From contig MFPR01000036.1 in NCBI GenBank assembly GCA_001784175.1, positions 1 to 42,745 of the forward strand: a stretch of 42,745 bases of DNA, in the 5' to 3' direction. This document shows, in pieces, positions 825 through 33,645 of the stretch (its first letter is position 1; each line of letters begins with the position of its first letter). This DNA comes from Candidatus Lindowbacteria bacterium RIFCSPLOWO2_12_FULL_62_27 (GTDB lineage Bacteria > Lindowbacteria > 2-12-FULL-62-27). The notes under the pieces were generated by a model that was not told the DNA's origin, did not search any database, and was given only the letters and a program-made list of their open reading frames with translations. The translations under genes and the position numbers were made by a program.

Positions 825-853
825 TTTACAAAAAACGGGGTCCTGTGTAAGAT
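825..853 (+). promoter_or_regulatory. Putative sigma70 promoter of the yceD-rpmF-fab operon
   Basis: TTTACA (825-830), 17 bp, TAAGAT (848-853). Confidence 0.5.
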
Positions 854-914
854 GCAACGGCCGGGTGAGGAAGAGACGGCGGGGCGTGTCGCCGGAATGG
901 GGGCGCTTTCCCAA

Positions 915-1454: not shown

Positions 1455-1467
1455 GGAGAATCATGCA

Positions 1468-1653
1468 ATGGCAAATCCCAAGAGACGATTTTCAAAGGCA
1501 AGAACCCGGACCCGCCGGTCCCAATGGAAGGTCGCGCCCTCGAACACCGTGCCGTGTCCGAACTGCAAGTCCCCCGTTCTTCCGCACCACGTCTGTCCGA
1601 CCTGCGGCCAGTACCGGGGCCGGCAGGTCATCAAACTCGAATCGACCGACTGA
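1468..1653 (+). CDS. rpmF: 50S ribosomal protein L32 (zinc-ribbon type)
   Basis: MANPKRRFSKARTRTRR, CPNC...PHHVCPTCGQY; AAGGAG RBS. Confidence 0.98.
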   Translation: MANPKRRFSKARTRTRRSQWKVAPSNTVPCPNCKSPVLPHHVCPTCGQYRGRQVIKLESTD

Positions 1654-1668
1654 GATCACCGCCGCCCC

Positions 1669-2703: not shown

Positions 2704-2708
2704 TAGAT

Positions 2709-3644: not shown

Positions 3645-3651
3645 TCCGGCC

Positions 3652-4593: not shown

Positions 4594-5366
4594 CGGAGAT
4601 GAACGCGCAGGCCGCACAGGCCGCGCCCGCGCAGAAAGTGGCCGTCGTGACCGGCGCCGGCAGCGGAATCGGCGAGGCGTGCGCCCGGCGGCTGGCGGCC
4701 GACGGCTGCCACGTGGCGCTGTTCGGGCGGCGGCTCGACAAGATCGAGGCCGTGGCGCAGTCGATCTGTGGCGCCGGCGGCGTCGACGCCGCCATCGCGG
4801 TGGCCTGCGACGTGTCGAGCGAGTCGTCGGTCGCCGCCGCGCAGAAGCAGGTGTCGGACCGGCTCGGCGTCTGCAACATCCTCGTGAACAACGCCGGGGT
4901 CACGAAGGACGGCTTGTTTATCCGGATGAAGACGGAGGATTTCGAGTCGGTTCTTCGGACGAACCTCGTCGGCGCCTTTATCGTCACCCACGCGTTTGCG
5001 CCGGCCATGATCCGCACCCGCTGGGGCCGGATCGTCAATGTCAGTTCCACCGTCGGGCTCACCGGCAACATCGGCCAGGCAAATTATGCCGCTTCCAAGT
5101 CCGGCTTGTTCGGCCTCACCAAGACCCTCGCGCTCGAATTCGCCCGCCGAAACGTCACCGTCAACGCCGTCGCGCCCGGATTCATCGAAACCGGGATGAC
5201 CCAGGGCCTGACCGAGGAGGTCCGCGCGGAGGTGCTGCGCCGCACCCCCCTCGAGCGGTTTGCGCGGCCGGAGGAGGTCGCGGCGCTCGTCGGGTTTCTG
5301 TGTTCCGACGCGGCCGGATACATCACGGGGGAGACCATCCGTATTGACGGCGGGATGGCAATGTGA
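4590..5366 (+). CDS. fabG: 3-oxoacyl-ACP reductase
   Basis: TGAGSGIG, NNAG, GQANYAASK, VAPGFI; ATGA overlap with fabD. Confidence 0.96.
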   Translation: MTEMNAQAAQAAPAQKVAVVTGAGSGIGEACARRLAADGCHVALFGRRLDKIEAVAQSICGAGGVDAAIAVACDVSSESSVAAAQKQVSDRLGVCNILVNNAGVTKDGLFIRMKTEDFESVLRTNLVGAFIVTHAFAPAMIRTRWGRIVNVSSTVGLTGNIGQANYAASKSGLFGLTKTLALEFARRNVTVNAVAPGFIETGMTQGLTEEVRAEVLRRTPLERFARPEEVAALVGFLCSDAAGYITGETIRIDGGMAM

Positions 5367-5415
5367 TTAATACGCTACAAGATTGAATATCGAAATCAGA
5401 GGGCAGGAGGGTTGA

Positions 5416-5655
5416 ATGGCGAGTATTGAGGAGCGCGTGAAGGAAATCATCATCGACCAGTTGGGCGTGACGGAGGAAGAGGTGAAGGACGCCGCGTCGT
5501 TCATCGACGACCTCGGCGCCGACTCGCTCGACACCGCCGAGCTGGTCATGGCCTTCGAGCAGGAATTCGGCATCAGCATTCCGGACGAAGAAGCCGAAAA
5601 GATCAAGACGGTCGGTCAGGCCGTCGAGCATGTGAAGAAGGCGGTCAAGGAATAG
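5416..5655 (+). CDS. acpP: Acyl carrier protein
   Basis: DLGADSLD phosphopantetheine site; GGAGG RBS. Confidence 0.98.
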
Positions 5656-5700
5656 ACCGCAACGCCGGCGCCTCTCCACACGCGCGCAGGAGCGAAAGGT

Positions 5701-6948
5701 ATGCGATCGGATCGGCGGGTAGTGATCACGGGCGTCGGCGTTGTTTCTCCGAACGGTCTCGGCGCGGATATGCTCTGGAGCGCCGTCATCGAGGGCCGGT
5801 GCGCGGCCCGGCCGGTCGAGGGGTTTGACGCTCGCCGGTTTCCCACCACCTTTGCCTGTGAAGTCACGGGCTACACCCCTGAAGAGCACTTTTCGTCGAA
5901 GGAACTCAAACGGCTGGACCGGTTCGTCCAGCTCGGCCTGATCGCCGCGAAAGAGGCGATCGGGGACAGCGGGATAGACGCGTCCAAGGAGCCGCTGGAC
6001 CGGATCGGCGTGATCATCGGTTCGGGGATCGGCGGGATCGCGACGCTCGAGCAGGAGGCGCGCGCGCTGGACCCGGCGTCGGAGCATCCCAAGGTTTCGG
6101 TGTTTCTGATTCCGAAACTCATCATCAACATGTGCAGCGGCGAAGTCGCCATCCGCTACGGGTTCTGCGGGCCGAACCTGACCCAGGCGACGGCGTGCGC
6201 GACGGGGACGCATTCGATCGGCGACGCGATGAAGATCATCCAGCGGGGCGACGCCGACGTCATGATCGCCGGCGGCACCGAGGCCGCGGTCACGCCGCTG
6301 GGGTTTGGCGGCTTTTGCAGCATGAAGGCCCTCTCGCGCCGCAACGACGATCCGGCGCACGCCTCGCGTCCGTTCGACGCCGACCGCGACGGTTTCGTGA
6401 TGGGCGAGGGCGCGGGCGTCGTTGTGATCGAGGAGCTGGAGCGGGCGAAGAAGCGGGGCGCCAAAATTTACGCCGAGGTCGCCGGCTACGGCCTTTCGGC
6501 CGACGCCTACCACATCACGGAGCCGGAACCGACCGGCAAGGGCGCCCGGCGTGCGATGTCGATGGCGATCACGGACGCCGGCCTGAATCCGACGGACGTC
6601 GATTACGTCAACGCGCACGGCACCTCGACCAAATTCAACGACCGCGCGGAAACGCAGGCCATCAAGGCCGTCTTCGGCGACCACGCCCGCCGCCTTCCGG
6701 TCAGCTCCACCAAATCGACGACCGGACACCTTCTCGGCGCGGCCGGCGCCGTCGAGTCCATCACCTGCGCCTTTGCCTTGCAGCGCGGCGTGATCCCGCC
6801 GACGGCGCATTACCAGACGCCCGACCCCGAGTGCGATCTCGACTATGTGCCGAACACGGCGCGGGAAAAACCGATCCGGGTCGCGCTCAACAACGCCTTC
6901 GGGTTCGGCGGCCACAACGGTTGCCTGATTCTCAAAAAATTTGTCTGA
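5701..6948 (+). CDS. fabF: 3-oxoacyl-ACP synthase II
   Basis: TACATG, NAHGTST, KSTTGHLLGAAG, FGFGGHN. Confidence 0.97.
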   Translation: MRSDRRVVITGVGVVSPNGLGADMLWSAVIEGRCAARPVEGFDARRFPTTFACEVTGYTPEEHFSSKELKRLDRFVQLGLIAAKEAIGDSGIDASKEPLDRIGVIIGSGIGGIATLEQEARALDPASEHPKVSVFLIPKLIINMCSGEVAIRYGFCGPNLTQATACATGTHSIGDAMKIIQRGDADVMIAGGTEAAVTPLGFGGFCSMKALSRRNDDPAHASRPFDADRDGFVMGEGAGVVVIEELERAKKRGAKIYAEVAGYGLSADAYHITEPEPTGKGARRAMSMAITDAGLNPTDVDYVNAHGTSTKFNDRAETQAIKAVFGDHARRLPVSSTKSTTGHLLGAAGAVESITCAFALQRGVIPPTAHYQTPDPECDLDYVPNTAREKPIRVALNNAFGFGGHNGCLILKKFV

Positions 6949-7612
6949 CCTCGCGGCGTTAGAGGATATCCTGGGCCACCGGTTTTCAAAACCGGACCTC
7001 CTGCTGACCGCTCTCACGCACCGCTCGTACCGCTCGGTCGACGCGGCGTGCGGAGACTATGAGCGGCTGGAGTTTCTAGGGGACGCGGTCCTCGGCATGG
7101 TGGTCAGCCAGAAATTGTTCCGCGACCTCGATCTGCCCGCGGGCGATCTCACCAAGCGCACCAGCCAGGTGGTGAGCCGGTCGGCCTGCGAGGGGGTTGC
7201 CCGGCGGATGGGGCTCGACCGGCATGTCCGTGTGGGCCCGGCGGCCACCATCGAGGGCACATCCATTCTGTCCAACGTCATTGAAGCCGTGCTTGGCGCG
7301 GTCTATCTCGACGGGGGCTTGGACGCCGCGACGGAATTTGTGTACCGCCATTTCGGCGACCTCATCGCCTCCGCGATTCTCGAGGGCGTCGAAAATCCCA
7401 AGGCCATGATGAACGAACTTTTCCTGAAGGAGCGCAAAGCCGCCCCGACCTACCGGGTCGTCGAAACCTCCGGCCCGGACCACGCCCCGACCTACGTGGT
7501 CGAGGCGATCTTCGAAGACAAGGTCCTGGGCCGGGGCGCCGGCCGGAACAAGCGCGAGGCCGAAGCCGCCGCGGCGCGCAACGCCATCGAATCGCTGCTC
7601 GCCGGGCGATAA
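6941..7612 (+). CDS. rnc: Ribonuclease III
   Basis: ALTHRS, ERLEFLGDAVL signature and a C-terminal dsRBD (GPDHAP...GRNKREAEAAAA); TTG start overlapping the end of fabF. Confidence 0.96.
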   Translation: MSDLAALEDILGHRFSKPDLLLTALTHRSYRSVDAACGDYERLEFLGDAVLGMVVSQKLFRDLDLPAGDLTKRTSQVVSRSACEGVARRMGLDRHVRVGPAATIEGTSILSNVIEAVLGAVYLDGGLDAATEFVYRHFGDLIASAILEGVENPKAMMNELFLKERKAAPTYRVVETSGPDHAPTYVVEAIFEDKVLGRGAGRNKREAEAAAARNAIESLLAGR

Positions 7613-7829
7613 CGGGCTCTTTGAATTCCATCCGGCAGCGCGCGCCGGGTTACCGGAAATCGCGGCGGAAATAACCGATGGCCATTACTGCAAAACTGCA
7701 TCTCTGACACCGATTACCCACCCTGCGCACACTTGAAATCGTGCCACCCCTGCGGTAAGTTTACACTATAAGTTGCAGTCGGACGTGGTCCATGATCATG
7801 GAAGAACTGCAATTCCAAGGAGGATCAAC

Positions 7830-8057
7830 ATGGCCAGTGTACAAGAAATCATCAGAGACGCTGAATCGCTCCCCGTCGAGGAAAGGGCGATTCTAGTCGA
7901 TTCGTTGCTTAGAACTTTGAATGCTACCGATCCGGAAATCGACAAACTCTGGATTAAGGAAGCCAAACGTCGTCTGGAGGAACTTCGTTCCGGGCACGTG
8001 CGGGGAATTCCGGGCGAGGAAGTCTTCGAGCGTATTCACAAACGTTTTGAAAAATGA
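7830..8057 (+). CDS. Addiction-module antitoxin (TIGR02574-like)
   Basis: LPVEERAILVDSLLRTL...IDKLWIKEAKRRLEEL...GIPGEEVF pattern; AAGGAGG RBS; ATGA overlap with the toxin. Confidence 0.85.
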   Translation: MASVQEIIRDAESLPVEERAILVDSLLRTLNATDPEIDKLWIKEAKRRLEELRSGHVRGIPGEEVFERIHKRFEK

Positions 8058-8365
8058 TTTTTACCTTTCATCCCGCCGCCGAGACGGAATTTATCGAGGC
8101 CGTCGACTATTATGAAAAATGTGGGAAGGGGCTCGGCTATGATTTTTCCATGGAGGTTTACTCGGCAATTCGAAACGTTGTCGATTTTCCAAAAGCATGG
8201 CCGATCGTGGAAGGCGATGCACGCCGCTGCCTGACAAACCGGTTCCCTTTTGGAGTTCTCTACAGCATCGAACCAGACAGAATATTTATCCTGGCCATCA
8301 TGCATTTGCGCCGGCATCCGGACTACTGGAAAGAACGGAAGCCCAACACGACATCCACTCCGTGA
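8054..8365 (+). CDS. RelE/ParE family toxin
   Basis: FHPAAETEFIEAVDYY...RRCLTNRFPFGVLY...ILAIMHLRRHPDYW pattern. Confidence 0.88.
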   Translation: MIFTFHPAAETEFIEAVDYYEKCGKGLGYDFSMEVYSAIRNVVDFPKAWPIVEGDARRCLTNRFPFGVLYSIEPDRIFILAIMHLRRHPDYWKERKPNTTSTP

Positions 8366-8598: not shown

Positions 8599-8628
8599 TT
8601 GACTACTTTGTCCGACTTTGGATATAGT
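8599..8628 (+). promoter_or_regulatory. Putative sigma70 promoter of the reductase operon
   Basis: TTGACT (8599-8604), 18 bp, TATAGT (8623-8628); GGAAGGAG RBS downstream. Confidence 0.45.
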
Positions 8629-8659
8629 AGGTCTGAGTGAGGGCGGAAGGAGACGACCC

Positions 8660-10942
8660 ATGTATGTAGATCCATCAGCGGGCTTCTGGAAACGGAGCCT
8701 CGCCGGAAAAATCCGGGCGGATTGGGCCAAAGAGATTGACGACTATGAAACCGAAGTCGTCCTGAAGAAGCAGGGGAAGATTGAGGAGAAGGTCTTCGCC
8801 GAGACGCGCCTGCGGCGCGGGGCCTACGGCCAGCGCTATGACAACGGATTCCGGCACGACGGAAAAATGCAGAGGCCCATCGAGTATCCCGGCACGGGCG
8901 TGACCAAGGGTCCGAACACGATGTGGGACGCCCCGGGGATGCAGCGGATCAAGATCCCGTACGGCGGACTTACGCCCGAGCAGATGGAGACGATCGCCGA
9001 CCTTGCGGAGGAGTATTCCGACGCGATCTGCCACGTCACCACCCGCCAGGATTTTCAGCTTCACTATGTCTTCATCGACACCACGCCGTCGATGTTCCGG
9101 CGGCTGGCGGCGGTCGGCATCACGACGCGCGAGGCCTGCGGCAATTCGGTGCGCAACGTCACCGGCTGTCCCTACGCGGGCGTCTGCCCGACCGAGGCGT
9201 TCGACGTCACGCCGTATGCCCGAGCCGCGTTCCAGTACCTGCTGGGCCATCCGGACGTGCAGGATTTCGGCCGGAAATTCAAAATCGCGTTTTCAGGCTG
9301 CAAGGACAAGGCGTGCGCGCTGGTCAGCATGCACGATTTGGGATTCATCGCCGCCGCGCGCTCGCTGAACGGCAAAGTCGAGCGCGGGTTCGAAATGTAC
9401 GTCGGCGGCGGTCTCGGCCCGGAACCCTACCAGGCGAAACTGTTCGATCCGTTTGTTACCGAATCCGAGATGCTGGCGGTCACGCAGGCCGTCTGCCGGA
9501 TTTTTGCGCGGTACGGCGAGAAGAAGAAGCGCGGCCGGGCCCGGATCAAATTCCTGGTCGGCGACTGGGGGATCGAGAAATTCAAGCAGGCCGTGCTGGA
9601 GGAGCGCGCGAAACTGCCGGCCGACCCGCGCTGGACGGAGTACCTCGCGCATCTCGGCGAGACGGACGAGACGCCGCTCCGTCCCGCGTCTTCCTCCGTT
9701 CCCCTTGCCCGCAACGGATACGAATACTGGTATTCGACAAATGTTCTTCCGCAAAAACAGAAAGGCTACGCCATCGTCACGGTGACCCTGCCGCTGGGCG
9801 ACCTCACCGCCAATCAGATGCGGGCCCTCGCGGACCTTGTGCGAAAATATACGAAGGGCACCGCGCGCACCACCGTCGAGCAGAACATCGTGATCCGCTG
9901 GGTGAGCGAATCGGACGTCCCGGCGCTCTACGAGGACCTCAAGCGAATCGGTCTGGCCGAACCCGGCGCCGGCACGATCGTGGACGTCACCGCCTGCCCG
10001 GGGACCGACACGTGCAAGCTGGGCGTGTCGTCCTCCCGGGGACTCGGGGGAGTTCTCAGGGAGCGGCTGGCGGCCAAAGCGCTCGAGATGGACGAGTCGA
10101 TCCGGGGACTGCGGATCAAAGTGAGCGGGTGTTTCAACTCGTGCGGCCAGCATCACATCGCCGACATCGGATTCTACGGCACCAGCCGCAACGTCGGCGG
10201 CTACGTCGTGCCGCATTTTCAGCTTGTCCTGGGCGGCACCATGCGCGAAAACGCCGCGTCCTACGGTCTCGCGATCGGCAACGTGCCGTCGAAATCCATT
10301 CCGGACGTCGTCGACCGGCTGACCGACTTGTACGCAAAAGGCCGGCGGGGTGGAGAGTCGTTCCAGGCGTTTATCGCGCGGCTCGGCAAAGCCGAGCTCA
10401 AAACTGCGCTGGCGGACCTTCTCGCCGTGCCTGCCTACGAGAAGGATCGAAGCTTCTACGTCGACTGGGGCGACGTGCGGGAGTACTCGACGAAAGACAA
10501 GGGCACCGGCGAGTGCGCCGGCGAGGTCGTGAGCCTGACCGAGTTTGGCCTGAAGGCCGCGGACCGCGAGGTGTTCGAGGCGCAGGAGGCGCTGGACGGC
10601 GGCCGGCATCAGCAGGCGGCGGACATGGCCTACACGGCGATGAAGCACGCGGCGCAGGCGCTCGTCAAAAAATACAATCCGGACATCTCCGAGGAACCCG
10701 ACGCGGTATTGAAGGAGTTCACGGAGCGTTTTTGCGACACGCAGATTTTTTACGATCCCTACGCGGGCCCCAAGTTCGCGCACTATTATGCCCGCGCCCA
10801 CGAACACCGGGCCGACCCGGCCGACGCGGAGAAGGCGCGCCACCGCGTGGGCGAGGCCCAGCTTTTCATCGACGCCGCCTACAACTGCAACATCCGGATG
10901 AGCATGGAAAAAACCGCGTCGAACGCTGTCCTCAACGCCTGA
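8660..10942 (+). CDS. Siroheme/4Fe-4S nitrite or sulfite reductase (ferredoxin type) with a C-terminal HEPN-like domain
   Basis: HVTTRQDFQ, ACGNSVRN, RKFKIAFSG, VGGGLG, TVEQNI, CPGTDTC and SGCFNSCG ligands; ATG 8660 with RBS. Substrate not determinable. Confidence 0.9.
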   Translation: MYVDPSAGFWKRSLAGKIRADWAKEIDDYETEVVLKKQGKIEEKVFAETRLRRGAYGQRYDNGFRHDGKMQRPIEYPGTGVTKGPNTMWDAPGMQRIKIPYGGLTPEQMETIADLAEEYSDAICHVTTRQDFQLHYVFIDTTPSMFRRLAAVGITTREACGNSVRNVTGCPYAGVCPTEAFDVTPYARAAFQYLLGHPDVQDFGRKFKIAFSGCKDKACALVSMHDLGFIAAARSLNGKVERGFEMYVGGGLGPEPYQAKLFDPFVTESEMLAVTQAVCRIFARYGEKKKRGRARIKFLVGDWGIEKFKQAVLEERAKLPADPRWTEYLAHLGETDETPLRPASSSVPLARNGYEYWYSTNVLPQKQKGYAIVTVTLPLGDLTANQMRALADLVRKYTKGTARTTVEQNIVIRWVSESDVPALYEDLKRIGLAEPGAGTIVDVTACPGTDTCKLGVSSSRGLGGVLRERLAAKALEMDESIRGLRIKVSGCFNSCGQHHIADIGFYGTSRNVGGYVVPHFQLVLGGTMRENAASYGLAIGNVPSKSIPDVVDRLTDLYAKGRRGGESFQAFIARLGKAELKTALADLLAVPAYEKDRSFYVDWGDVREYSTKDKGTGECAGEVVSLTEFGLKAADREVFEAQEALDGGRHQQAADMAYTAMKHAAQALVKKYNPDISEEPDAVLKEFTERFCDTQIFYDPYAGPKFAHYYARAHEHRADPADAEKARHRVGEAQLFIDAAYNCNIRMSMEKTASNAVLNA

Positions 10943-10951
10943 ACAGTGGAT

Positions 10952-11518
10952 ATGCAGAAAATCAACTGGAAACTATTTGTCGAGCGCCCGGAAACTGCGA
11001 GTCCCGACGTTTTCTTCAAAGTTTTCAACACCTGGATTCCGGGCAGCCCTGAGGTCTTTGTCGACGTGGCCGATTACCAGCACGCGCACGACGGCCCGCG
11101 CACGGCTCTGGTCGGTTATTGCTCGGACTTTTGGCTGGACGATGCCGGGTCCCGCGTCGGGCTCCTCTACAATCGCCGCGCGCCGATGGAGGGAACCGGC
11201 GAGGAGAAGCTCAAGCGAACGCTGGGCGAGTTGTTCCGGTCGTGCCGGCGGCTGGAGCAGGACCCCGAGTTTGGCGGCCGGCTGAAGTTCCGGACGGATG
11301 AACTGGTGTTTCGGATCAATGACCGCGGCCTTGCGCCCAACACGGCGGAGACGTTCGACCGCGTCCGGGCTGTGCTCGCGGGGGTCCTGTCCGGCGTCTA
11401 CGGCGGAACGTCGTTTGTCCTCGATCGCGTGACCGACCCGCGGCAGCGGTTCACGGTCAACATTTCAAGCCTTCCCCATCACCCTCTCGATCATCTGATC
11501 CAGCGGTTGCCCTCCTGA
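10952..11518 (+). CDS. Conserved hypothetical protein accompanying the reductase
   Basis: Starts 9 nt after the reductase stop (GTG 10946 possible); VDVADYxH-GP, GLLYNR and INDR-LAPN blocks. Confidence 0.8.
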   Translation: MQKINWKLFVERPETASPDVFFKVFNTWIPGSPEVFVDVADYQHAHDGPRTALVGYCSDFWLDDAGSRVGLLYNRRAPMEGTGEEKLKRTLGELFRSCRRLEQDPEFGGRLKFRTDELVFRINDRGLAPNTAETFDRVRAVLAGVLSGVYGGTSFVLDRVTDPRQRFTVNISSLPHHPLDHLIQRLPS

Positions 11519-12519
11519 TGCTGCGCGTGTGCCTGCTCGGTACGGGCGATTACGCGTACGTCCATGCCGACTGGTGGGGTCGCGTGCCCGGCGCGCGCCT
11601 GGTCGCGGTGGCGGGCCGGACGCCGGACCGGGTCCAGCGCCTGTGCCGTGGCCGGCCGGGCGTCGAGCCGCTGTCCATGGAGGACGTGCAGAAATCCGGC
11701 CGCCCCTTCGACCTCGTGGACATCGTGACGCCGCATTCGCTCCACGCGGAACAGACGGTCCGCGCCTTGGAGGCCGGGTATCATGTGCTGGTCGAAAAAC
11801 CGATGGCGACAACCGCGGCGGACGCCGGGCGGATGGTCCGCGCGGCGGGGTCGGCCGGCCGGAGGCTCTTTGTCGTATCGCAGTACAGATTCATCCCGGC
11901 GTTTCGCGTGCTCTCCAGGGTTTTGGGCGGCGTGCGAGTGCGGCGCGCGAAATATTCCATGAAGGCGACGCTGTTCAGCGCGGGCATCAATACGGACCGG
12001 GAGACTTGGAAATCCAAACGCGAAACCGCCGGTGGCGGCCTCCTGATCGGCAGCCTCGTCCATCCGCTGGATCTGCTGTTGAAATGGTTCGGCGCGCCGC
12101 AGGATATCGTCGCGAAGACCGGCGCGGAGATTCGAAACATCGAGGTGGAGACGCGCGTCCAAGCGTCATGGCGCGCGGATCATGGCGCGCGGATCGAGCT
12201 GGAAGGCGCCGCGCTGCCCGGCGTCATCCCGGCGGCGGAGCTTGAAATCGAACTTGAAAATGGCCGGAAGGTCCGCGTCCAGAATCGGCGCTTCGACCCG
12301 CGTGGCGTGCCGATCCGGTGGAAACTCATGGAACTCTGGACCGGCTTCTGGGGCCGGGCCGTCCCCTCTCGGCGCGATCCTCTCGCCCGGCAGTTCGCCG
12401 ACATCGTCCAGTCCCTGGCCACCGGCCGGCGCGCTGCGGTTGAGGGCGCCGACGGGTTGTCGGTGATCGGTGCGGTTGAAAAAATCTACGAGGCGGCGCT
12501 CAAAAAATCGGATAATTGA
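11518..12519 (+). CDS. Gfo/Idh/MocA family oxidoreductase
   Basis: LLGTGDYA Rossmann start, TPHSLH, HVLVEKP, GGGLL...HPLD; TGATG coupling to the upstream gene. Confidence 0.88.
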   Translation: MLRVCLLGTGDYAYVHADWWGRVPGARLVAVAGRTPDRVQRLCRGRPGVEPLSMEDVQKSGRPFDLVDIVTPHSLHAEQTVRALEAGYHVLVEKPMATTAADAGRMVRAAGSAGRRLFVVSQYRFIPAFRVLSRVLGGVRVRRAKYSMKATLFSAGINTDRETWKSKRETAGGGLLIGSLVHPLDLLLKWFGAPQDIVAKTGAEIRNIEVETRVQASWRADHGARIELEGAALPGVIPAAELEIELENGRKVRVQNRRFDPRGVPIRWKLMELWTGFWGRAVPSRRDPLARQFADIVQSLATGRRAAVEGADGLSVIGAVEKIYEAALKKSDN

Positions 12520-12691
12520 ACGGCCGCATGCCCAGTTTTTTGATGTAGAGGAAGAGGCCGCCGACGAGGACGAGCAGGATCAAGAGCGGCGTCAGCCACC
12601 ACCAGCGGTAGTCCCAGACCATCTGTTTGAAGGACCGGGGCGGCTCGGGCGCCTCCGGCGCCGGTTCCTTTCGAAGATCTTCTCCGGCCAT
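12500..12691 (-). CDS. 63-aa single-TM microprotein, DUF5989/SxtK-like, with DltX-like C-terminal motif
   Basis: ATG at 12691, 2 nt after the MBOAT stop; ...YRWWWLTPLLILLVLVGGLFLYIKKLGMRPFNYPIF. Hidden as the C-terminus of shadow ORF 12500..13471. Confidence 0.75.
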   Translation of the reverse strand: MAGEDLRKEPAPEAPEPPRSFKQMVWDYRWWWLTPLLILLVLVGGLFLYIKKLGMRPFNYPIF

Positions 12692-12693
12692 GG

Positions 12694-14148
12694 CTAGAAT
12701 TGGAAATAAATAAACTGCTGTTTCGTGAACATTCCGAAGAAGATGATCGCAAAGGCCAAGAGATAAATCCAGACCCACCGGACCCAGATTTTTTGTTGCG
12801 CGAACCGGACGTCCAGGCCCCACCGGTTCTGCAGGAGGTCCCCTCCGATCAGCACTGCGATCATTCCCATGGCGGTCAGAAACGACTGCGCGGACCGGCC
12901 GAGGAGCAGCGCCGGCGCCAGGGCCGACGGGTCGGTCAGCGCCGACCAGCCGGTTGTGAGGCGGCTGAGAACGGTGAGGGCGTCCGACATGGAATTGGCG
13001 CGGAAGAAAATCCAGGCGAAGGCGACCAGGTTGAAGGTGACGAAGACTTGGGCGGCGCGCCGGACCGGATGCGTTTGCGGGCCCGCATTCCCAAAGATCC
13101 GGGTCTGCCACGGTTTCCAGAACACCGACGCGGCCAGATACAGGCCATGCAGCGCGCCCCAGACGATGAAGGTCCATGCGAAGCCGTGCCAGAGCCCGGA
13201 GAAGAGAAACGTGACCATGAGCGCTGCGGCGACCCCGAAATTCCTTCCATCCCGCCACTGAATTTGCAGGGGCTTGAAGATGTAGTCGAGAATCCATCGC
13301 GAAAACGAAATATGCCAGCGCCGCCAGAAGTCCGGCACGGAGGCGGCGAGGTACGGAGAATTGAAATTTTGCGTCAGCCGGATGTTGAACATTTGCGCGA
13401 CGCCGAGGGCCATGTCGGTGTAGCCGGAAAAATCCGCGAAGATCTGGATCGCATAGAGGTAGGTCGCCCACACCAGCGTGACGCCGTCATGGGCGCTGAC
13501 ATCGCCGTAGACTGCGTCGACATAGACCGCCAGTCGATTCGCCACCGCCTCTTTCTTGAAAAGCCCCCAGCCGAACAGAATGAGGCCGCTGTACAGATTG
13601 TCGGTGTTGCGCTCGTAGGGCGTGCGGAGCTGCGGCATCAAATCGCTGGCCCGCTCGATGGGGCCCTGCAGCAGTTTGGGAAAAAATCCGAGGTAGAGCG
13701 CGAACCGCCCGAAATGCGTTTCCGGCTCGGCCGTTTCCATATAGACATCGGTCAAATAGGAAACCGCCTGCAGCGTGTAGTAGGAAACGCCGATCGTGAC
13801 AAATAAATTTCCCCACGCCGTGTCCGCCGCCAGACTTGGATAAAAGGCTTGGGCGAGCGTGTGCAGGTACTTGACGCCGCAGAGGACCCCGACGTTTGCG
13901 GCGATGCCTGCCCATAGAAGCCGCCCTCGGGCGGTCTCGGCCGTTTGACGCGCCATTCGGAGGCCGCACTCATATGACACCCACGTGACGCCCGCCCATG
14001 CCGCGAGGAGGACCGGCGCTTTGAGGGTCGCGTAAAAGAGGACGCTCGCGACGAGCAACACCAGCCACCGGCGGGCGTCGGGCGTGACCTGGTACACGAG
14101 CCAGATCACCGGCACGAAGAGGAAGTAGGCCGGCGAATCGAAGAACAT
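12694..14148 (-). CDS. MBOAT O-acyltransferase (AlgI/DltB-like)
   Basis: IGVSYYTLQAVSY, FFPKLLQGPIER, DFSGYTDMA, FWRRWHISFS, SGLWHG; C-terminal FIYFQF. Confidence 0.95.
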   Translation of the reverse strand: MFFDSPAYFLFVPVIWLVYQVTPDARRWLVLLVASVLFYATLKAPVLLAAWAGVTWVSYECGLRMARQTAETARGRLLWAGIAANVGVLCGVKYLHTLAQAFYPSLAADTAWGNLFVTIGVSYYTLQAVSYLTDVYMETAEPETHFGRFALYLGFFPKLLQGPIERASDLMPQLRTPYERNTDNLYSGLILFGWGLFKKEAVANRLAVYVDAVYGDVSAHDGVTLVWATYLYAIQIFADFSGYTDMALGVAQMFNIRLTQNFNSPYLAASVPDFWRRWHISFSRWILDYIFKPLQIQWRDGRNFGVAAALMVTFLFSGLWHGFAWTFIVWGALHGLYLAASVFWKPWQTRIFGNAGPQTHPVRRAAQVFVTFNLVAFAWIFFRANSMSDALTVLSRLTTGWSALTDPSALAPALLLGRSAQSFLTAMGMIAVLIGGDLLQNRWGLDVRFAQQKIWVRWVWIYLLAFAIIFFGMFTKQQFIYFQF

Positions 14149-14385
14149 TTACGGCCGCCCCAATTTCGCGTCCACCAGGCGCTGCAGATCCCCCACGTTT
14201 TTGAGTTTCAGAATTTCCAGGTTCTTGAACCGGACGGCGAACTTCTGTTCCACGGCGAGGATCACGTTCACGTGGTTCAGCGAATCCCAGCCGGGCACTT
14301 CCGGGGCGGTCGTTTGCTCCGTGAGGTTCCAGTCGTCGAGTTTGAGCGCGCCCAAAATGGTCTGCTTCAATTCGTTCGTAATCAT
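14149..14385 (-). CDS. Dedicated acyl carrier protein
   Basis: GWDSLNH phosphopantetheine motif; 78 aa; abuts the MBOAT and overlaps the ligase stop. Confidence 0.92.
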   Translation of the reverse strand: MITNELKQTILGALKLDDWNLTEQTTAPEVPGWDSLNHVNVILAVEQKFAVRFKNLEILKLKNVGDLQRLVDAKLGRP

Positions 14386-16064
14386 GCGCCCTCCAGAAGT
14401 CTTTCCTTGTTCGCCCTCCGGCTGGGTTTGCCGGCCGAGCTCTTAATCAACCATCGCGGCGGTACCAGGTAAACCTTCGCGATCGTCACGTCGATCGACA
14501 TGCCGGCCCGGACCACGGCGAGCTTGAGCGCCTTCCGGCCCGCGTCGTCTTCGACATTCGTTTCGGCCGCGACCGCCACCTGCTCGCTGCCGATATCCTT
14601 GTTGTCCTCGGCGAAGGCGATCACGCGCCCGGGAATGACGCCGTCGACTTTCCCGACCGCATCCTCGACGTCCTCGGGATAAACGTTGTTTCCGGCGACG
14701 ATGATGACATCCTTTTTTCTTCCGATGACGTAATACTCGCCGTCTCTTCTGAACCCGTAATCTCCGCTGAAATACCAGCCGTCGCGAAGGACATCGGCGG
14801 TTTTTTCCGGATAATTCCGGTAGCCGTCGAAAAGCGAAACCGATGTAATGGCCAACTCGCCGATGGTTCCGTCGGCAACTTCCCGGCGGTTCTCGTCCAC
14901 CACCTTCAGCCGGCAGCCATCGATGGGCCGGCCGGACGAGACGCACAACCGGTCCGGCCTGCCGGTCCGGGCGGGCGCTGCCATGCCCTTGGAAAGTTCG
15001 GCGCGGTCGGCGGCGAACACGGCCGGCTCGGTTTCAGGCGCCGTCTGCGTGACCGCGAACGTGGTCTCCGCCATGGCGTAGCACGACGAGAGCGCGGCCA
15101 AATTCAATCCGCGCGCCCGGAACCGCTCGATGAACTTCTGATGGCTTTCGTGCCGGACCGGTTCGCTGCAATTGACGACGAGCCGCCAGCTTCGAAGGTC
15201 AACGCCGTCGAGGTCTTCGTCCGAGATTTTGTCCGCCATCAGGTTGTACGCGAAGTTCGGCAGCCACGAGATCGTGCCGCGCTCCCGAGAAACCGCCTCC
15301 AGGAGGAGGGACGGCACCTGCACCCATTCAAACGGATCGATCTGTACCGCCGGAATTCCGAACGCGAGCGGCAGATGAAAGGCCGCGATCAGACCCATGT
15401 CGTGATAGAGCGGCAGCCAGCTCACGATCTTGTCCGTGTCGGTCAGCCGAATCGCCTCCCCGTAGAGCCTGACGTGTTCGAGTACGGCGCGGTGCGACAG
15501 GAGGACAGGTTTCTGCAGGCCGGTGGTGCCGGAGGAATGCTGAAGCAAAAACGGGTCGGCCGGCGCCGCCGCGCGGTGGGCTGCCTCCACGCGGTCCCGT
15601 GCCTTGCCGCTCAGGGTCGTGCCCATGTCCCATTCGAGCGGAAAGTGCAGGCCTTTGATGGTGGTGCCCGCGGCGGGCTCGATCAGAGGGGAAGCCACCG
15701 GCTCGAGGTCTCTTTCCGTGAATATCCAGTCCAGTCCGGACCGGCGCGACATGCCGATGATTCCCTCCCGGAATTTGTCCGGATGCAGCCGCGGGTTCGG
15801 GTAGGCCAGGATCGCCGGGATCGCGCCGACACAGCTCACGGCAAGGTAAAGCGGATAGAGATGGCGGTTGTGACGCAGCAGGATCGCGCACACGTCGCCC
15901 TTGGCGATGCCGCGTTCGGTCAGCGACGCGGCAAAACATTCCGCGGCGCGGACCAGCCCCGAAAAGGTCCACCGGTACGGATCTTCCCCCGCGACCCAGT
16001 GGACGATCGCGTCCCGATCGGGGCGCTTCCGCGCGTTTTCAGTCCAGCGGTTCCAAAGAATCAT
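14382..16064 (-). CDS. AMP-dependent ligase, fatty acyl-AMP ligase-like
   Basis: LQHSSGTTG, SWLPLYHDMGL, NCSEP, YAMAE, SGD, GRKKD, KSSAGK; ATG 16064 in an ATGA overlap with the upstream gene. Confidence 0.9.
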   Translation of the reverse strand: MILWNRWTENARKRPDRDAIVHWVAGEDPYRWTFSGLVRAAECFAASLTERGIAKGDVCAILLRHNRHLYPLYLAVSCVGAIPAILAYPNPRLHPDKFREGIIGMSRRSGLDWIFTERDLEPVASPLIEPAAGTTIKGLHFPLEWDMGTTLSGKARDRVEAAHRAAAPADPFLLQHSSGTTGLQKPVLLSHRAVLEHVRLYGEAIRLTDTDKIVSWLPLYHDMGLIAAFHLPLAFGIPAVQIDPFEWVQVPSLLLEAVSRERGTISWLPNFAYNLMADKISDEDLDGVDLRSWRLVVNCSEPVRHESHQKFIERFRARGLNLAALSSCYAMAETTFAVTQTAPETEPAVFAADRAELSKGMAAPARTGRPDRLCVSSGRPIDGCRLKVVDENRREVADGTIGELAITSVSLFDGYRNYPEKTADVLRDGWYFSGDYGFRRDGEYYVIGRKKDVIIVAGNNVYPEDVEDAVGKVDGVIPGRVIAFAEDNKDIGSEQVAVAAETNVEDDAGRKALKLAVVRAGMSIDVTIAKVYLVPPRWLIKSSAGKPSRRANKERLLEGA

Positions 16065-17044
16065 TGGGACATGCGCGCGCTGATTTCGGCCGAAACGAGC
16101 GCGTGCCCGAAATCGCTGTAATGGAGGGAGTCGACGTAGGTTGTGCGAATGTCGTGCGACACGAGGGCCGGCATGAGATCGATCCACGGGATTCCCTGCG
16201 TCTCGCAGAACGCGCGGATCTGCTCGTTTCTCGGAAACGCCGCCGTTCCCTGTTGCGCCGCCCGCACCTGCGATCTCGGCGGCGACAGCACGAGGATGAA
16301 CGAGTCGCCGGACCGATCGGCGCGGATGGCCAGAACGGCCTTCTGCCAGTCGTCCAGCGCCTGCGGATCGGCCGGCCTCGTCACGAGATTCAGAAAATAC
16401 CGGTCGGCCTGTTGCGGATCATCGAGCGCCTGGCTGGACCGCCACGTCAACAGGCGGAACACGCCCTCGCGTTTGGCGAGGCGTTTGATCGGCGACCGCC
16501 GTTCAATCATCGGATTGGTCAGGAGCGTGTTTTCATACCGGCTGCGGCCCTCCGCCACCGTGACGAGATCGTCGGCGCCCACCACCAGGACCAGGTGACG
16601 CGGCTCCAGCGCAAAGAGGTCGGCCCGGTAGCGGTCCCGGAGCTGATAAACCGTATAGCCGTCAAACCCCGCGTTCACGCCATTCAGCCGGCTCGCAAAG
16701 GTCGAGTCGGCCGGCACCTGCTGGCCGAGCGTGATGGACGTGCCGAGGAACAGCCTCGGCACCGGCGCCGCGCGGGGTCCACCGGTGCGCAGTCCGAGGT
16801 CGTCAAAGCACAGGGAGAAATCGCCGTAGCCGAGGACGGACTGATGGCGGCACCCGCGAAATTTCCAGCCGACCACCGGATCCTCCAACGCGATGTACTG
16901 GACGCGCCGCTGGGCCGGAATGAGGGCATAGGCCAGAACCTGGGCGAGCAGCTCGATTCCGGCGAGATTCAAGAGAACGATGGCGACGCCCATCTTGAGG
17001 CTGGGAGTCCCGGACTTATTGTTGTCTGGCTTGACGCCGTTCAT
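16061..17044 (-). CDS. Membrane-anchored SGNH/GDSL-like protein
   Basis: N-terminal TM, LFLGTSITLG (variant block I), NAGFDGY, DSLH (DxxH). Confidence 0.75.
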   Translation of the reverse strand: MNGVKPDNNKSGTPSLKMGVAIVLLNLAGIELLAQVLAYALIPAQRRVQYIALEDPVVGWKFRGCRHQSVLGYGDFSLCFDDLGLRTGGPRAAPVPRLFLGTSITLGQQVPADSTFASRLNGVNAGFDGYTVYQLRDRYRADLFALEPRHLVLVVGADDLVTVAEGRSRYENTLLTNPMIERRSPIKRLAKREGVFRLLTWRSSQALDDPQQADRYFLNLVTRPADPQALDDWQKAVLAIRADRSGDSFILVLSPPRSQVRAAQQGTAAFPRNEQIRAFCETQGIPWIDLMPALVSHDIRTTYVDSLHYSDFGHALVSAEISARMSQ

Positions 17045-17097: not shown

Positions 17098-18258
17098 ATG
17101 CGGCGCAAGACTCTGATCAAACTGTCGTTCGTCCTTGCCAGCGGCCTTTTGGGCCTGCTGGTTCTCGAAATTGCTGTGCGGATTGTCCATCCGCAATTTT
17201 TGGCGGTCAGCCAGCTCGCCGACCCGGTCCTTCTGTGGCGCCGCCGGCCGAACCTGGACATGCAGGTGCTCAATGCGGACGGCGAATGGTTCCTGTTCCA
17301 AACCAACTCGGACGGCTTCCGCGCGCGCGAGTTCAACGCGCTGCCGGAGGGTCGGCAGGTCCTGTTTTTCGGCGATTCGTTCATCGAGGGCGATTACGTT
17401 TCCGACACGTGTCTCTTCGTGAACCATGTCGAATCCTTCCTGCGCGAGGGAACCGGCGATCCTTACGTCTGCCTGAACCTCGGCACGGCCGGGTATGGTC
17501 TCGACCAGCAGACGCTCCTGTACAACCGCCTCCGGGGCAGGCTGCGGCCCAGCGTGGTCGTGCTCGCGTACGCGGGCGGGGCGGTCGAAAAGGTGGCGAC
17601 GCGCACGCTCTTTTCGCTGGACCCGCGAGGGGCGTTGATTTCCAACGTGAACGAATCCGCGGCGCCGCCGGTCTCGCAGAGGCTCTATTACGGCGCCAAG
17701 AATTTTTTCCTGCACGACCTGCATCTCTTCAGCGCGATCATCTGGCCGCTTTCCACGAACCCCGATTTCATCCGGCTCATGACGCGGCTGGGCCTGTTTC
17801 ACGTGGATCTGGCCGCCATCGGCGAATCCGGGCCGGCCTTCAGCTACCGCCACGAGCAGTACCGCCGGGAAGCGCCGCCGAGAATCAAGACGGCGTGGGA
17901 AAAATATTCAAAGGTTCTCGCCCTGATGGACGACCGGGTCCGCTCGGACGGCGCGCGGCTCATGATATTGTACATTCCGTCCGAGGAGGAAATGTATCCG
18001 GACAAGTGGGCGAAGTTTTCGTCCGAGGCGGCGCCGGGCGAATCGCCGCTGGATTCCGGGTTGGTCGAGCAGACGGTCCGCCGGATCGCCGAGTCGCGGC
18101 AGATTGCCTTTGTGTCCCTTCTGCCTGTTCTGCGCGCGGCGGCGCGTGAGGAGCGCCTCTATTATCCGAAGGACGGCCACTGGACGTGCAAGACCCAGCG
18201 GATGGCCGCCCGGGAATTTTCGGGGATGATGATCCCGCACCTGAGGAGGATGCCGTGA
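17098..18258 (+). CDS. Membrane-anchored SGNH protein (AlgJ/AlgX/DltD-like)
   Basis: N-terminal TM, TNSDGFR, FFGDSF, NLGTAGY, KDGHW. Confidence 0.85.
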   Translation: MRRKTLIKLSFVLASGLLGLLVLEIAVRIVHPQFLAVSQLADPVLLWRRRPNLDMQVLNADGEWFLFQTNSDGFRAREFNALPEGRQVLFFGDSFIEGDYVSDTCLFVNHVESFLREGTGDPYVCLNLGTAGYGLDQQTLLYNRLRGRLRPSVVVLAYAGGAVEKVATRTLFSLDPRGALISNVNESAAPPVSQRLYYGAKNFFLHDLHLFSAIIWPLSTNPDFIRLMTRLGLFHVDLAAIGESGPAFSYRHEQYRREAPPRIKTAWEKYSKVLALMDDRVRSDGARLMILYIPSEEEMYPDKWAKFSSEAAPGESPLDSGLVEQTVRRIAESRQIAFVSLLPVLRAAAREERLYYPKDGHWTCKTQRMAAREFSGMMIPHLRRMP

Positions 18259-19589
18259 AGCGGTTGTTTCTCAATCGATCCATGCTGTTTTTCTGTATCG
18301 CCCTTCTGTACAGGCTCGGCATCTATTTCCTGGGCCCGCAGATCCAGGGCTTCACGCAGGACAGTTTCTACTACGTGCCGGTGGCCCGGGAGATCGCCGC
18401 CGGCCACGGGATTCAGTACGTCTGGAAATGGTCGGAGATCTATTCGTTCGGCTGGGGCGACCAGTGGGGTGGTCAGGACCCGGAGGAAATCCGGCTGGCG
18501 AAGGCCGGCCATCCGGCGTTCAAAATGGTGCCCGAAGGCGTGGCGTGCAAGCTCCTCTTGCAGGACCCCGGATACAGCTTCTTCCTCGCGTTCTGGCACA
18601 TCGTCGGACTCTCGCATCCGACGGCCATCGTTGTGATCCAGTGCCTCCTGGCCGCGCTCCTGGCGCCGGCCATCTACACTTACGTGCTGCGCCGCGCGCC
18701 GCCGTCCTGCGCCGCCGCCGCGGCCCTCCTCTATGCCCTCGACCCGATCGCGTCCTCCACGTGCTTTTTCATGCTGCGCGAGGTGTTCGTCATGCTGGTG
18801 GTGACGACGGCGGTGTTCGCGCTGGACATGACCCATCGCGCGGCGCCGCTCGTGAAGGGGTTTTTGCTGGGCTGGGGGACCGTGTCGTTCGCGCTTCTGG
18901 GACTGTGGTCCAACCTCCTGTGGGTCTGGGACCGATGGCTCTCGCCGCGCCGCAGGGCCGTGACGATCTCGGTCGTCCTCGTGGCGTGGGCGGTCTTCGG
19001 CGCGTGGGCCGCGCGGAACATCCTCCTGTCGGACGGCAACTACGCGTTCCGGCGGCACCAGACGGCGCTGCTCATGTATTTCACGGCGCTCTACGATTTC
19101 CCGGGCCTGCCGAACGTGTACGACGAGGATTTCAAGAAAGTGTGGGTGGAGGCGAGCGCGAAAGCCGAATACGGATTCACCGTCGAGCAGCGCCGGATGG
19201 AGGCGTCGTTCGTCCGGATGACGTGGGAGGTGTTCAAAGCCGACCCGCCGAAGGTCGCGTGGCGGTTCGTGAAATGCAATTTCTGGTTCTGGCACGAAGT
19301 GCCGGGCGCGATGGAGATTTTGAAGAACAAACCGGTGATTCATATCGTCCTTCGAACGTTCCATGACGCGCAGGTGATCTTCTTTCTTCTGGGCATCGCG
19401 ATCCTGATCCGGACCGGCACGGCATCCTCGTTCCGGTTCGTGTGGGGCACCGTCGCCTATGTGGCCATTTTCATTTTTCCGTTCATGCCGATCCCGCGGT
19501 ACTACACGCCGTTTTTGCCTTTGATCGACATCGTGGCCGCCTACGGGGCGGTCCAGGTGTGTCAGAGAGTGTTCAGTGGTAAAAGGTAA
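18255..19589 (+). CDS. Polytopic membrane protein, GT-C (ArnT/PMT-like) glycosyltransferase candidate
   Basis: GTGA overlap with the SGNH stop; DSFYY after TM1, PGYSFFLA, WAARN, PRYYTP; many hydrophobic segments. Confidence 0.65.
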   Translation: MKRLFLNRSMLFFCIALLYRLGIYFLGPQIQGFTQDSFYYVPVAREIAAGHGIQYVWKWSEIYSFGWGDQWGGQDPEEIRLAKAGHPAFKMVPEGVACKLLLQDPGYSFFLAFWHIVGLSHPTAIVVIQCLLAALLAPAIYTYVLRRAPPSCAAAAALLYALDPIASSTCFFMLREVFVMLVVTTAVFALDMTHRAAPLVKGFLLGWGTVSFALLGLWSNLLWVWDRWLSPRRRAVTISVVLVAWAVFGAWAARNILLSDGNYAFRRHQTALLMYFTALYDFPGLPNVYDEDFKKVWVEASAKAEYGFTVEQRRMEASFVRMTWEVFKADPPKVAWRFVKCNFWFWHEVPGAMEILKNKPVIHIVLRTFHDAQVIFFLLGIAILIRTGTASSFRFVWGTVAYVAIFIFPFMPIPRYYTPFLPLIDIVAAYGAVQVCQRVFSGKR

Positions 19590-19631
19590 AGTTAAGCGGC
19601 GGGTTTGAATGCCCTAAAAGTAATGGGTTGT

Positions 19632-19706
19632 GTCAGGGGTCAGGGTGGTCAGGGTAGGTCAGGGTGGTCAGGGTAGGTCAGGGAGGTCAGGGGTCAGGGT
19701 GTCAGG
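19632..19706 (+). repeat. Tandem GTCAGGG array (8 full units plus GTCAGG) with 0-3 nt linkers
   Basis: Units start at 19632, 19639, 19648, 19658, 19667, 19677, 19686, 19693 and 19701. Confidence 0.95.
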
Positions 19707-20756
19707 TTGACACATTTACACATTTGTTCCAGACTTGGTCGGTTGAATCTTGGCTTTGATGGATCGCACATTATTCAAAACCCATTTCAGTTTCAGACGG
19801 TCCGAGCGGATGCGACGAATGGCCATACTGACAACCGTGTGCCTCGAAAGTTTTCGGCGGCGACGGATTCCTTCGTAGGTCATTTGTGACAGTTCCCTGT
19901 AACACCACCAGCGGAAATGTTCCTTGATCCGCTCTCCGTCCCTCCACGTCCTTCCGCCGGCCCACCCGGAAATATTTCCGGCTGCTATCCACCTGTCTAT
20001 ATCGTCGGCGTCATACAGCTCCGGCCGCCAGTCCAATCGCCGCGCCTCCTGCGGAGGTCTTCGTTCCGATTTCCTGCGGTTCACCCGTCTCAATATCTCG
20101 CGCCTGGAGTCGACTCCCATTAGAAATTGACTGCCATCCGCGCACACGGTCGCCCGGTTCCCTTCCACATCCAACCCGTTCAGCCAATCCACAAATCCCG
20201 CGCGGGACCTCCCCAAATCCGGATATTCCGCAAGCAATGTCTTGATATCCAGGAGCGACCTTTTCCGTACTTTGATGCGTGCAGACAGCGAACTCCACTT
20301 GTAGTCATCACACCACTTCACCATACCCGCCCTGACGGGATTCAACAAAACGTAGGCAATCACCGCGTAAAAATAGTCTTCCCCGTCAATCAGTTTCGAC
20401 CGATGGCGTCCCTGAAATAAATGCCCCACCCTATTCAAACGCCGGTTCATTTCCCTGGCAAAATTGGTTGAATACTTCTGAAGAAATGTCGATAGATTCG
20501 CACGACGGGTATGAACAACCGCATGAAAATGATTGGGCATACAACAGAACACCAGAATGCGGACACCCAGCCTGTCCGCAGCATCCGAGAGGTGATGCAG
20601 AAATAATTCGACATCGGCATCGCGCCGGAAAAACTTCTGCCCCCCAACGAACCGGTTCATCACATGATATATCCCGTCGGTTACCTCAATTCGGCGCGGC
20701 CTGACCATGAGATTTCATAATATCAGTATTTGTGTAAATGTGTCAACCTGACACCC
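19697..20756. mobile_element. RAYT/Y1-HUH element bounded by perfect 26-bp inverted repeats
   Basis: GGGTGTCAGGTTGACACATTTACACA at 19697-19722 and its exact reverse complement at 20731-20756 flank the transposase; the interior looks less GC-rich than the flanks. Confidence 0.8.
19716..20708 (-). CDS. REP-associated tyrosine transposase-like (Y1_Tnp) with a C-terminal DnaA-C-like HTH
   Basis: YHVMNR, MPNHFH (HUH), HLFQGR, YVLLNPVRAG (catalytic Tyr), YKWSS. Confidence 0.9.
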   Translation of the reverse strand: MVRPRRIEVTDGIYHVMNRFVGGQKFFRRDADVELFLHHLSDAADRLGVRILVFCCMPNHFHAVVHTRRANLSTFLQKYSTNFAREMNRRLNRVGHLFQGRHRSKLIDGEDYFYAVIAYVLLNPVRAGMVKWCDDYKWSSLSARIKVRKRSLLDIKTLLAEYPDLGRSRAGFVDWLNGLDVEGNRATVCADGSQFLMGVDSRREILRRVNRRKSERRPPQEARRLDWRPELYDADDIDRWIAAGNISGWAGGRTWRDGERIKEHFRWWCYRELSQMTYEGIRRRRKLSRHTVVSMAIRRIRSDRLKLKWVLNNVRSIKAKIQPTKSGTNV

Positions 20757-26919: not shown

Positions 26920-26920
26920 G

Positions 26921-30357: not shown

Positions 30358-30360
30358 CCG

Positions 30361-33126: not shown

Positions 33127-33130
33127 GATC

Positions 33131-33613: not shown

Positions 33614-33645
33614 ACTCCGGAGATTACTTCAGCCGCCCGATGAAG

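Follow-up and report, generated by a model that had tools for sequence, protein, structure and literature searches.

The stretch of DNA analysed here in its entirety (42,745 nucleotides, hereafter the window) is contig MFPR01000036.1 of Candidatus Lindowbacteria bacterium RIFCSPLOWO2_12_FULL_62_27. Its minus strand carries an acylation operon in which the genes of an SGNH protein, a fatty acyl-adenylate ligase (FAAL)-like enzyme, an acyl carrier protein (ACP), an acyltransferase of the MBOAT family and a 63-residue microprotein, P0001, follow one another in this order; the overlapping or abutting starts and stops suggest that these genes are tightly coupled. The last two products, the MBOAT (12694..14148, minus strand) and P0001 (12500..12691, minus strand), both end in an F-x-Y-x-x-F hexapeptide: the MBOAT terminates in TKQQFIYFQF, whose motif FIYFQF lies at 12697..12714, and P0001 in RPFNYPIF, whose motif FNYPIF lies at 12503..12520. 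A sequence-only reading of this DNA had pointed to these two tandem motifs and had placed them exactly. Among the 605 stop-terminated six-frame segments of the window that are at least 35 residues long, two have such an end, and they are these two neighbours. We discuss here the idea that P0001, a member of the DUF5989 family, is a free tyrosine shuttle working beside the fused one of the MBOAT.

P0001 escapes ORF callers, since it forms the in-frame end of an open reading frame (ORF; 12500-13471) of 323 codons, which is how a gene for a 63-residue protein with a single transmembrane helix came to be, as the earlier reading said, hidden from the ORF track. The 323-residue ORF was rejected as a true gene: its upstream part reads the MBOAT gene out of frame, with a GC content at third codon positions of 0.44 (0.78 in P0001) and a codon-usage score of -0.476 (+0.406 in P0001). 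For reference, 13 real genes of the window score 0.25-0.44, and the five other frames over P0001 score -0.58 to +0.08. The ATG of P0001, read from the window sequence, stands 2 nt past the TAG of the MBOAT gene, and we infer that P0001 is translated. Its last codons overlap by 20 nt (12500-12519) the 3' end of a convergent gene for a GFO/IDH/MocA oxidoreductase (11518-12519, plus strand); no strong terminator was found between the two genes, and the scan for promoters and terminators was uninformative.

P0001 matches the Pfam profile of DUF5989 (PF19451) over positions 15-49 of 49, with 26.0 bits for a cut-off of 27 (E 9.5e-6), and the precomputed annotation of the protein collection assigns it to PF19451.6. 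The score is thus slightly short, but an exhaustive phmmer search with P0001 returned 22 other proteins, 19 of which are above the DUF5989 cut-off, so that the proposed membership survives the check. The remaining three are P0022 (a weak match) and P0004 (no Pfam match at E 0.01), both divergent relatives, and P0008 (312 residues), a spurious hit without DUF5989 match which was removed before counting. The top Atlas clusters for P0001 are also DUF5989 (0.79 and 0.75), which we take as a lead only. P0001 has the signature of the family, that is, a WW-x-x-P motif, one transmembrane helix (residues 32-50 according to a Kyte-Doolittle analysis) and a C-terminal P-F-x-Y-x-x-F. It keeps all six invariant columns of a 21-row alignment, including W31, W32, P35, P57 and Y60, the last being present in 21 of 21 rows. 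The family is large: of 8000 proteins scored, its profile matches at least 5494.

Other searches returned little. NCBIfam gave no match for P0001, a word-indexed search found the query itself only, and tblastn against plasmids found nothing for P0001 and two chance N-terminal matches for P0002; the canonical family member P0018 has no match in phages. Among solved structures, none is a relative of DUF5989 (the best E value is 0.043). A 131-residue ORF (P0005) that joins a C-terminal fragment of carbamoyltransferase to DUF5989 was discarded as evidence of fusion, because a frameshift seems to underlie this gene call. The Pfam and NCBIfam libraries presumably contain a model of DltX, the tyrosine microprotein of the Dlt pathway. 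The DltX family is absent from the Pfam matches of 55 DUF5989 members at E values up to 1; what we propose is therefore that P0001 works like DltX, not that it is a DltX.

The earlier reading would have been refuted by a variable tyrosine, and the tyrosine is in fact highly conserved. It occupies position -4 in 135 of 136 DUF5989 homologues, and in the one exception it still aligns with this column but is followed by an extension. The full F-x-Y-x-x-F is found in 131 of the 136, so the tyrosine is kept more strictly than the terminal phenylalanine. It is important to note that the tail took part in the selection of these homologues, 115 of which are close to one another. As a partial control, a profile deprived of the last eight residues was applied to 7902 segments. 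It retrieved 17 (E<1e-5), every one with Y at -4 and F at -6, only one of the loci concerned (L024, from Methylosinus) having been fetched without a DUF5989 query. The 25 fetched loci comprise 6207 segments, of which 21 have an F-x-Y-x-x-[FWYL] end; 20 of those 21 are termini of DUF5989 proteins or MBOATs. The N-terminal side of the helix is richer in lysine and arginine than the C-terminal side in 135 of the 136 homologues, and the family is predicted from this positive-inside rule to have its N-terminus in the cytoplasm and its C-terminus outside.

The MBOAT (484 residues) has the fold, the predicted catalytic histidine (His321) and the extension with a fused F-x-Y-x-x-F that characterize the AlgI/PatA type. 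Its score against TIGR04091 is 167 for a cut-off of 375. The AlphaFold model obtained with an alignment has a mean confidence score (pLDDT) of 90.3; the single-sequence prediction (41.5) was unusable. The best fold match of the model is DltB (6bug, 8jem). The sequence match to DltB stops near residue 383 of 484. The extension beyond this DltB-like core closes with a last transmembrane helix (454-472), followed by F-I-Y481-F-Q-F, and the tail (476-484) is modelled with a pLDDT under 50, which would fit a mobile arm in an otherwise confident model. H321, Y481 and F484 are invariant in 120 aligned MBOAT rows; all 120 homologues have the tyrosine at -4, and 119 end in F-x-Y-x-x-F.

Upstream of the MBOAT gene, the operon encodes the ACP (78 residues, 14149..14385, minus strand; predicted phosphopantetheine site Ser35), whose matches are all below the cut-offs (PP-binding, E 0.014; ACP families, E 2.6e-6), and the ligase (560 residues counted from an ATG that overlaps the SGNH stop, 14382..16064, minus strand). 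The best family matches of the ligase, PRK07768 and PRK09192, are also below their cut-offs, and its best PDB match is 3pbk, a fatty acyl-adenylate ligase (E 1.3e-54). Near its closest plasmid relative (Leptolinea), neither an MBOAT nor a DUF5989 protein is annotated or was detected.

Two SGNH proteins had been announced at this locus, and both have an intact Ser/Asp/His triad as judged from the sequence, although only one belongs to the operon. The operon SGNH (327 residues, 16061..17044, minus strand) has an N-terminal hydrophobic segment, GTS103 and D305-x-x-H308. The other one (386 residues, 17098..18258, plus strand), encoded divergently, has an AlgX/AlgJ-like C-terminal half, a weak match to the LA_2490 family, GDS94 and D359-x-H361. 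A profile built from SGNH proteins linked to DUF5989 gives 117 bits for the divergent SGNH and 67 for the operon SGNH; a profile of SGNH proteins encoded after an MBOAT gives -2.3 and -1.9 bits, respectively. The divergent SGNH also matches the SGNH proteins of the DUF5989 loci L013c (E 1.9e-15) and L006 (E 2.6e-8), and has no tblastn match in plasmids. Its stop overlaps the start of a gene for a polytopic GT-C/PMT_2-like membrane glycosyltransferase (18255..19589, plus strand), whose Atlas features are 0.99 with PMT_2 clusters (TM 0.8); NCBIfam gives no match for this protein, nor does Pfam for the enclosing 467-residue ORF. The coupling of the two genes suggests that the target may be a lipid-linked or protein-linked glycan.

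The gene neighbourhoods of DUF5989 elsewhere were compared in 16 loci with flanks of 5-10 kb, taken from 12 of 47 plasmid records, from GTDB (three loci, all those obtained from the 55 matches of the narrower A2 pattern) and, in one case, through its carbamoyltransferase. An SGNH gene is the most constant partner (14 of 16 loci; in L002, L014, L015 and L016 the assignment relies on our in-house profile alone), followed by SxtJ (13) and a carbamoyltransferase (12), while an MBOAT is present in one. Several of these loci lie among genes for exopolysaccharides or ABC transporters. The usual donor being a carbamoyltransferase with SxtJ, it is unlikely that the family arose as a partner of MBOATs. 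The suggestion of the sequence-only reading that DUF5989/SxtK-like proteins are tyrosine shuttles is therefore upheld in part: the conservation of the tyrosine and the link to SGNH proteins speak in its favour, whereas the MBOAT is not the habitual donor.

The composition of the common module is that of sxtI-sxtJ-sxtK-sxtL, in which SxtK, from its size and its place in the gene order, is presumably the DUF5989 protein. In PMC2679770, these four genes measure 1839, 405, 165 and 1281 nt, sizes that fit those of the module, and the functions of sxtJ and sxtK are given as "Unknown"; PMC2679770 and PMC2684587 place these two genes, listed as unknown or hypothetical, between a carbamoyltransferase and a GDSL gene.

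Some modules are split or incomplete. In two planctomycete loci (L004 and L009) carbamoyltransferase, SxtJ and DUF5989 are encoded without an SGNH, and L006 has SxtJ, DUF5989 and SGNH without carbamoyltransferase. Two further planctomycete loci (L011:9998-10177 and L012:9980-10168) encode a DUF5989-like protein that ends in FQYILR; two or three SGNH genes precede it, and no gene for a donor enzyme lies within 10 kb. In S. meliloti (L002:7760-9089) an SGNH, split in two ORFs and without annotated coding sequence, is divergent from sxtJ-DUF5989-carbamoyltransferase, and in Leisingera (L017:3216-4790) a second, atypical protein with a carbamoyltransferase domain directly follows the SGNH gene. 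The SxtJ proteins of L002-L007, L009, L013-L015 and L024 share a C-terminal tail that is hydrophilic and conserved (R-x-x-G-x-D-x-L, [ST]-Y-W, terminal Q-F), which could be a docking site for the carbamoyltransferase; by eye, 12 aligned SxtJ-like proteins have no invariant histidine or other clear catalytic residue. A ligase and a putative ACP next to the DUF5989 module of L024 were considered as a parallel to the window and rejected, since the 79-residue ORF is unlike the window ACP and the ligase is unlike the window ligase.

The one DUF5989 locus of the 16 that has an MBOAT is in Sinorhizobium chiapasense (L008). There, a divergent SGNH/DUF5989 pair, syntenic with those of S. fredii and S. 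meliloti, is adjoined by an MBOAT that ends in SEFIYFNF and by a further SGNH, so that the inventory is the same as in the window: two motifs and two SGNH proteins. The MBOAT has no plasmid relative above 46%, and the SGNH that follows it scores 63 bits on the profile of DUF5989-linked SGNH proteins. SxtJ and carbamoyltransferase are missing from the locus, and no ortholog from this plasmid appears among the 60 best matches, which go down to 56.5%. In a tree, the DUF5989 protein nests among carbamoyltransferase-linked rhizobial copies, which indicates that the loss of the donor is secondary. The donor swap appears to be the more interesting result of this comparison: a tyrosine microprotein normally associated with carbamoyltransferase and SxtJ is found twice beside a motif-bearing MBOAT.

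We argue that DUF5989 proteins are probably DltX-like tyrosine shuttles that feed SGNH transferases. They would be single-pass peptides whose C-terminal tyrosine, exposed outside, takes an activated group and passes it to the catalytic serine of a membrane-anchored periplasmic SGNH, and from there to an envelope glycan. The usual group would be a carbamoyl, supplied without an MBOAT by a cytoplasmic carbamoyltransferase and the membrane protein SxtJ, the mobile tyrosine tail, guided by SxtJ, bridging the cytoplasmic enzyme and the periplasmic SGNH across the membrane. Aryl carbamates can carbamoylate serine hydrolases. Periplasmic glycans would then be O-carbamoylated through carbamoyl-Tyr and carbamoyl-Ser(SGNH) intermediates. 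More tentatively, the DUF5989 proteins may be free tyrosine shuttles with interchangeable donors, which together with carbamoyltransferase and SxtJ would make up a third class of trans-membrane group transfer, devoid of MBOAT and of acyltransferase-3 (AT3), and which could be replugged into MBOAT cassettes.

In the window, where no profile match to a carbamoyltransferase or to SxtJ was found over the 42.7 kb, a ligase-ACP-MBOAT cassette stands in place of the usual donor module, and P0001 may have been recruited to it. The ligase would adenylate a carboxylic acid and load it as a thioester on the phosphopantetheine of ACP Ser35; the MBOAT, with His321, would most likely load its own Tyr481 from the acyl-ACP, and this tail would serve the operon SGNH. 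The free Tyr60 of P0001 would be a second carrier, bringing acyl groups to Ser94 of the divergent SGNH once loaded, either inside the funnel of the MBOAT or through transfer from the first carrier or SGNH. The divergent SGNH is favoured as the acceptor for P0001 because it is the more typical DUF5989 partner, judging from the profile scores, and because the divergent SGNH/DUF5989 layout recurs (L002, L008, L015). We infer the acylation or carbamoylation of the DUF5989 tyrosine, its SGNH partner, the pairing of each carrier with its SGNH, the acyl group and the target. For this explanation as a whole, including an active role of P0001 linked to the MBOAT, we would give a probability of about 0.45.

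Several observations weigh against it. The weakest step is how, in the common module, the tail would reach a cytoplasmic enzyme without an MBOAT funnel. A trio of carbamoyltransferase, short SxtJ-like protein and SGNH exists in Ralstonia without any DUF5989; its SGNH has no evident N-terminal helix, and this system may be cytoplasmic. The 16 loci are not independent (six are rhizobial, and 13 come from plasmid records), and the two SGNH profiles are of unequal depth (19 rows for the DUF5989-linked one, five for the other). None of six loci fetched by similarity to the MBOAT (out of 132 records) has a DUF5989 protein within 6 kb, which indicates that an MBOAT whose tail is fused can normally do without; with the motif carried by the extra helices of the MBOAT, the site of DltX is probably already filled. 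It may also be that the Sinorhizobium locus is a deletion remnant beside an unrelated insertion. P0001 itself is atypical: its Pfam score is below the cut-off, it has three basic residues on each side of the helix, which makes its topology ambiguous, and the three after the helix compare with 0 in 130, 1 in 5 and 2 in 1 of the 136 homologues. The proline at -3 is seen in 2 of the 136. No obvious Shine-Dalgarno sequence is visible by eye in the 25 nt upstream, so translation would likely occur by coupling to the MBOAT stop. Last, no close relative of P0001 was found (the best matches are at 33-48%), hence none with which to compare this gene order. The basic residues, the lack of a clear ribosome-binding site and the six MBOAT loci make it possible that P0001 is a relic or acts in trans.

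If it acts in trans, P0001 would be loaded by a carbamoyltransferase and SxtJ encoded elsewhere in the genome, and one glycan would get two groups, an acyl through the MBOAT tail and a carbamoyl through P0001. This would explain why two carriers and two SGNH proteins are retained, and split modules do exist, as the loci without SGNH (L004, L009), without donor (L011, L012) or without carbamoyltransferase (L006) illustrate. We nevertheless consider this unlikely, since both donor genes are absent from the window and the P0001 gene is coupled to the MBOAT stop. In addition, in a weakly resolved tree based on 48 columns only, all 13 carbamoyltransferase- or SxtJ-linked rows fall in one clade (support 97/88) and P0001 lies outside it; of the rows whose context is known, only those of L011 and L012 share this outside position, and these loci have no local donor either.

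Alternatively, P0001 could be a drifting relic of an SGNH-DUF5989 module whose donors were lost or replaced, the fused tail of the MBOAT then serving both SGNH proteins. The unusual basic residues and proline, the sub-threshold score and the six MBOAT loci without DUF5989 are all in line with decay, and the 20-nt overlap with the convergent gene may by itself constrain the end of P0001. The ORF is intact, however, with gene-like codon usage; it keeps all the invariant columns and its position two bases behind the MBOAT stop, and the Sinorhizobium locus is a second, independent association of MBOAT and DUF5989. We therefore find decay improbable. That DUF5989 is a structural adaptor or regulator, whose tail binds in the pocket of the SGNH or links the SGNH to SxtJ or to the MBOAT while the tyrosine carries nothing, would dispose of the problem of cytoplasmic access in the common module, and it accords with the lack of an evident catalytic residue in SxtJ and with the relatives in L011 and L012 that end in Arg rather than Phe, but it is quite improbable, as the tyrosine is kept above the terminal phenylalanine (135 versus 131 of 136), at the very position where DltX and PatA are acylated, and a periplasmic SGNH would need some carrier for a group activated in the cytoplasm.

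Other genes lie elsewhere in the window. On the plus strand, a fatty-acid synthesis cluster (852-7612: YceD, PlsX-like, FabH, FabD, FabG, FabF, with RNase III) lies about 5 kb from the operon, and is followed by an addiction-module antitoxin and a ParE-family toxin in a stretch of lower GC (7773-8365), then by a sulfite/nitrite reductase with a C-terminal PaREP1-like extension and a 190-residue protein without family match (8618-11518). Just past the GT-C gene, short imperfect tandem repeats precede an IS200-like transposase with a C-terminal DnaA-type helix-turn-helix (19590-20708). A B12-binding radical SAM gene (23986-25476) comes after a Pel-type exopolysaccharide cluster (25546-40753, minus strand) with PelF, PelG, a GH114 protein, a response regulator and a GAF-GGDEF protein, as well as a 722-residue protein without Pfam or NCBIfam match, TPR proteins, a lipoprotein-like ORF and HEAT/TPR proteins. 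The Pel cluster begins about 6 kb beyond the GT-C gene and has no demonstrated link to the acylation locus.

How does the proposed mechanism compare with known systems? In PMC12148441, the C-terminal FXYXXF is described as the "acyl shuttle" of DltX and PatA, with an established tyrosine relay, and the extra helices of AlgI/PatA-type MBOATs are said to carry a DltX-like motif; PMC13653941 and PMC13721041 also deal with this relay, and the former reports that DltX's C-terminal peptide binds the SGNH protein DltD. The word "carbamoyl" and the string "DUF" have no occurrence in the text of PMC12148441. Our literature search found no paper that names DUF5989 or proposes a shuttle role for it; the first paper on DltX, by Schultz et al. 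(2023), lies outside its coverage and may mention the family. If the proposal holds, a large family that was uncharacterised so far acquires a function open to testing, and a route is suggested by which cytoplasmic carbamoyltransferases, in the loci examined often encoded among exopolysaccharide genes, could modify glycans outside the membrane. The presence of DUF5989 beside carbamoyl-transfer enzymes would then point to an undescribed mode of cell-surface decoration.

With the carbamoyltransferase-SxtJ-DUF5989-SGNH module, the window has in common a DUF5989 protein and SGNH proteins of the same type, but neither carbamoyltransferase nor SxtJ. It resembles PatA/PatB and AlgI/AlgJ/AlgX by its MBOAT, with invariant histidine and fused motif, and by SGNH partners with AlgJ/AlgX-like C-terminal halves; it differs in that an ACP is added, along with a dedicated ligase and a microprotein. 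According to PMC12148441, only Dlt uses a free tyrosine microprotein, and the other MBOAT-SGNH pathways do without microprotein or carrier protein. There is also a parallel with Dlt (DltA-DltC-DltB-DltX-DltD): ligase, carrier protein, MBOAT, single-pass FxYxxF microprotein and SGNH all have counterparts in the operon, P0001 being, like DltX, a single-pass microprotein that ends in the hexapeptide. However, the MBOAT of the window has a fused motif which DltB lacks, the ligase is FAAL-like, the microprotein is a DUF5989 protein without match to DltX, neither of the two SGNH proteins is annotated as DltD, and a Pel cluster is present in the window, which shows no trace of genes for teichoic acids. 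If our proposal is correct, the machines of the window and of S. chiapasense combine one fused and one free carrier. The window unites an ACP with two motifs, one fused and one free, and in this it departs from the model set out in PMC12148441.

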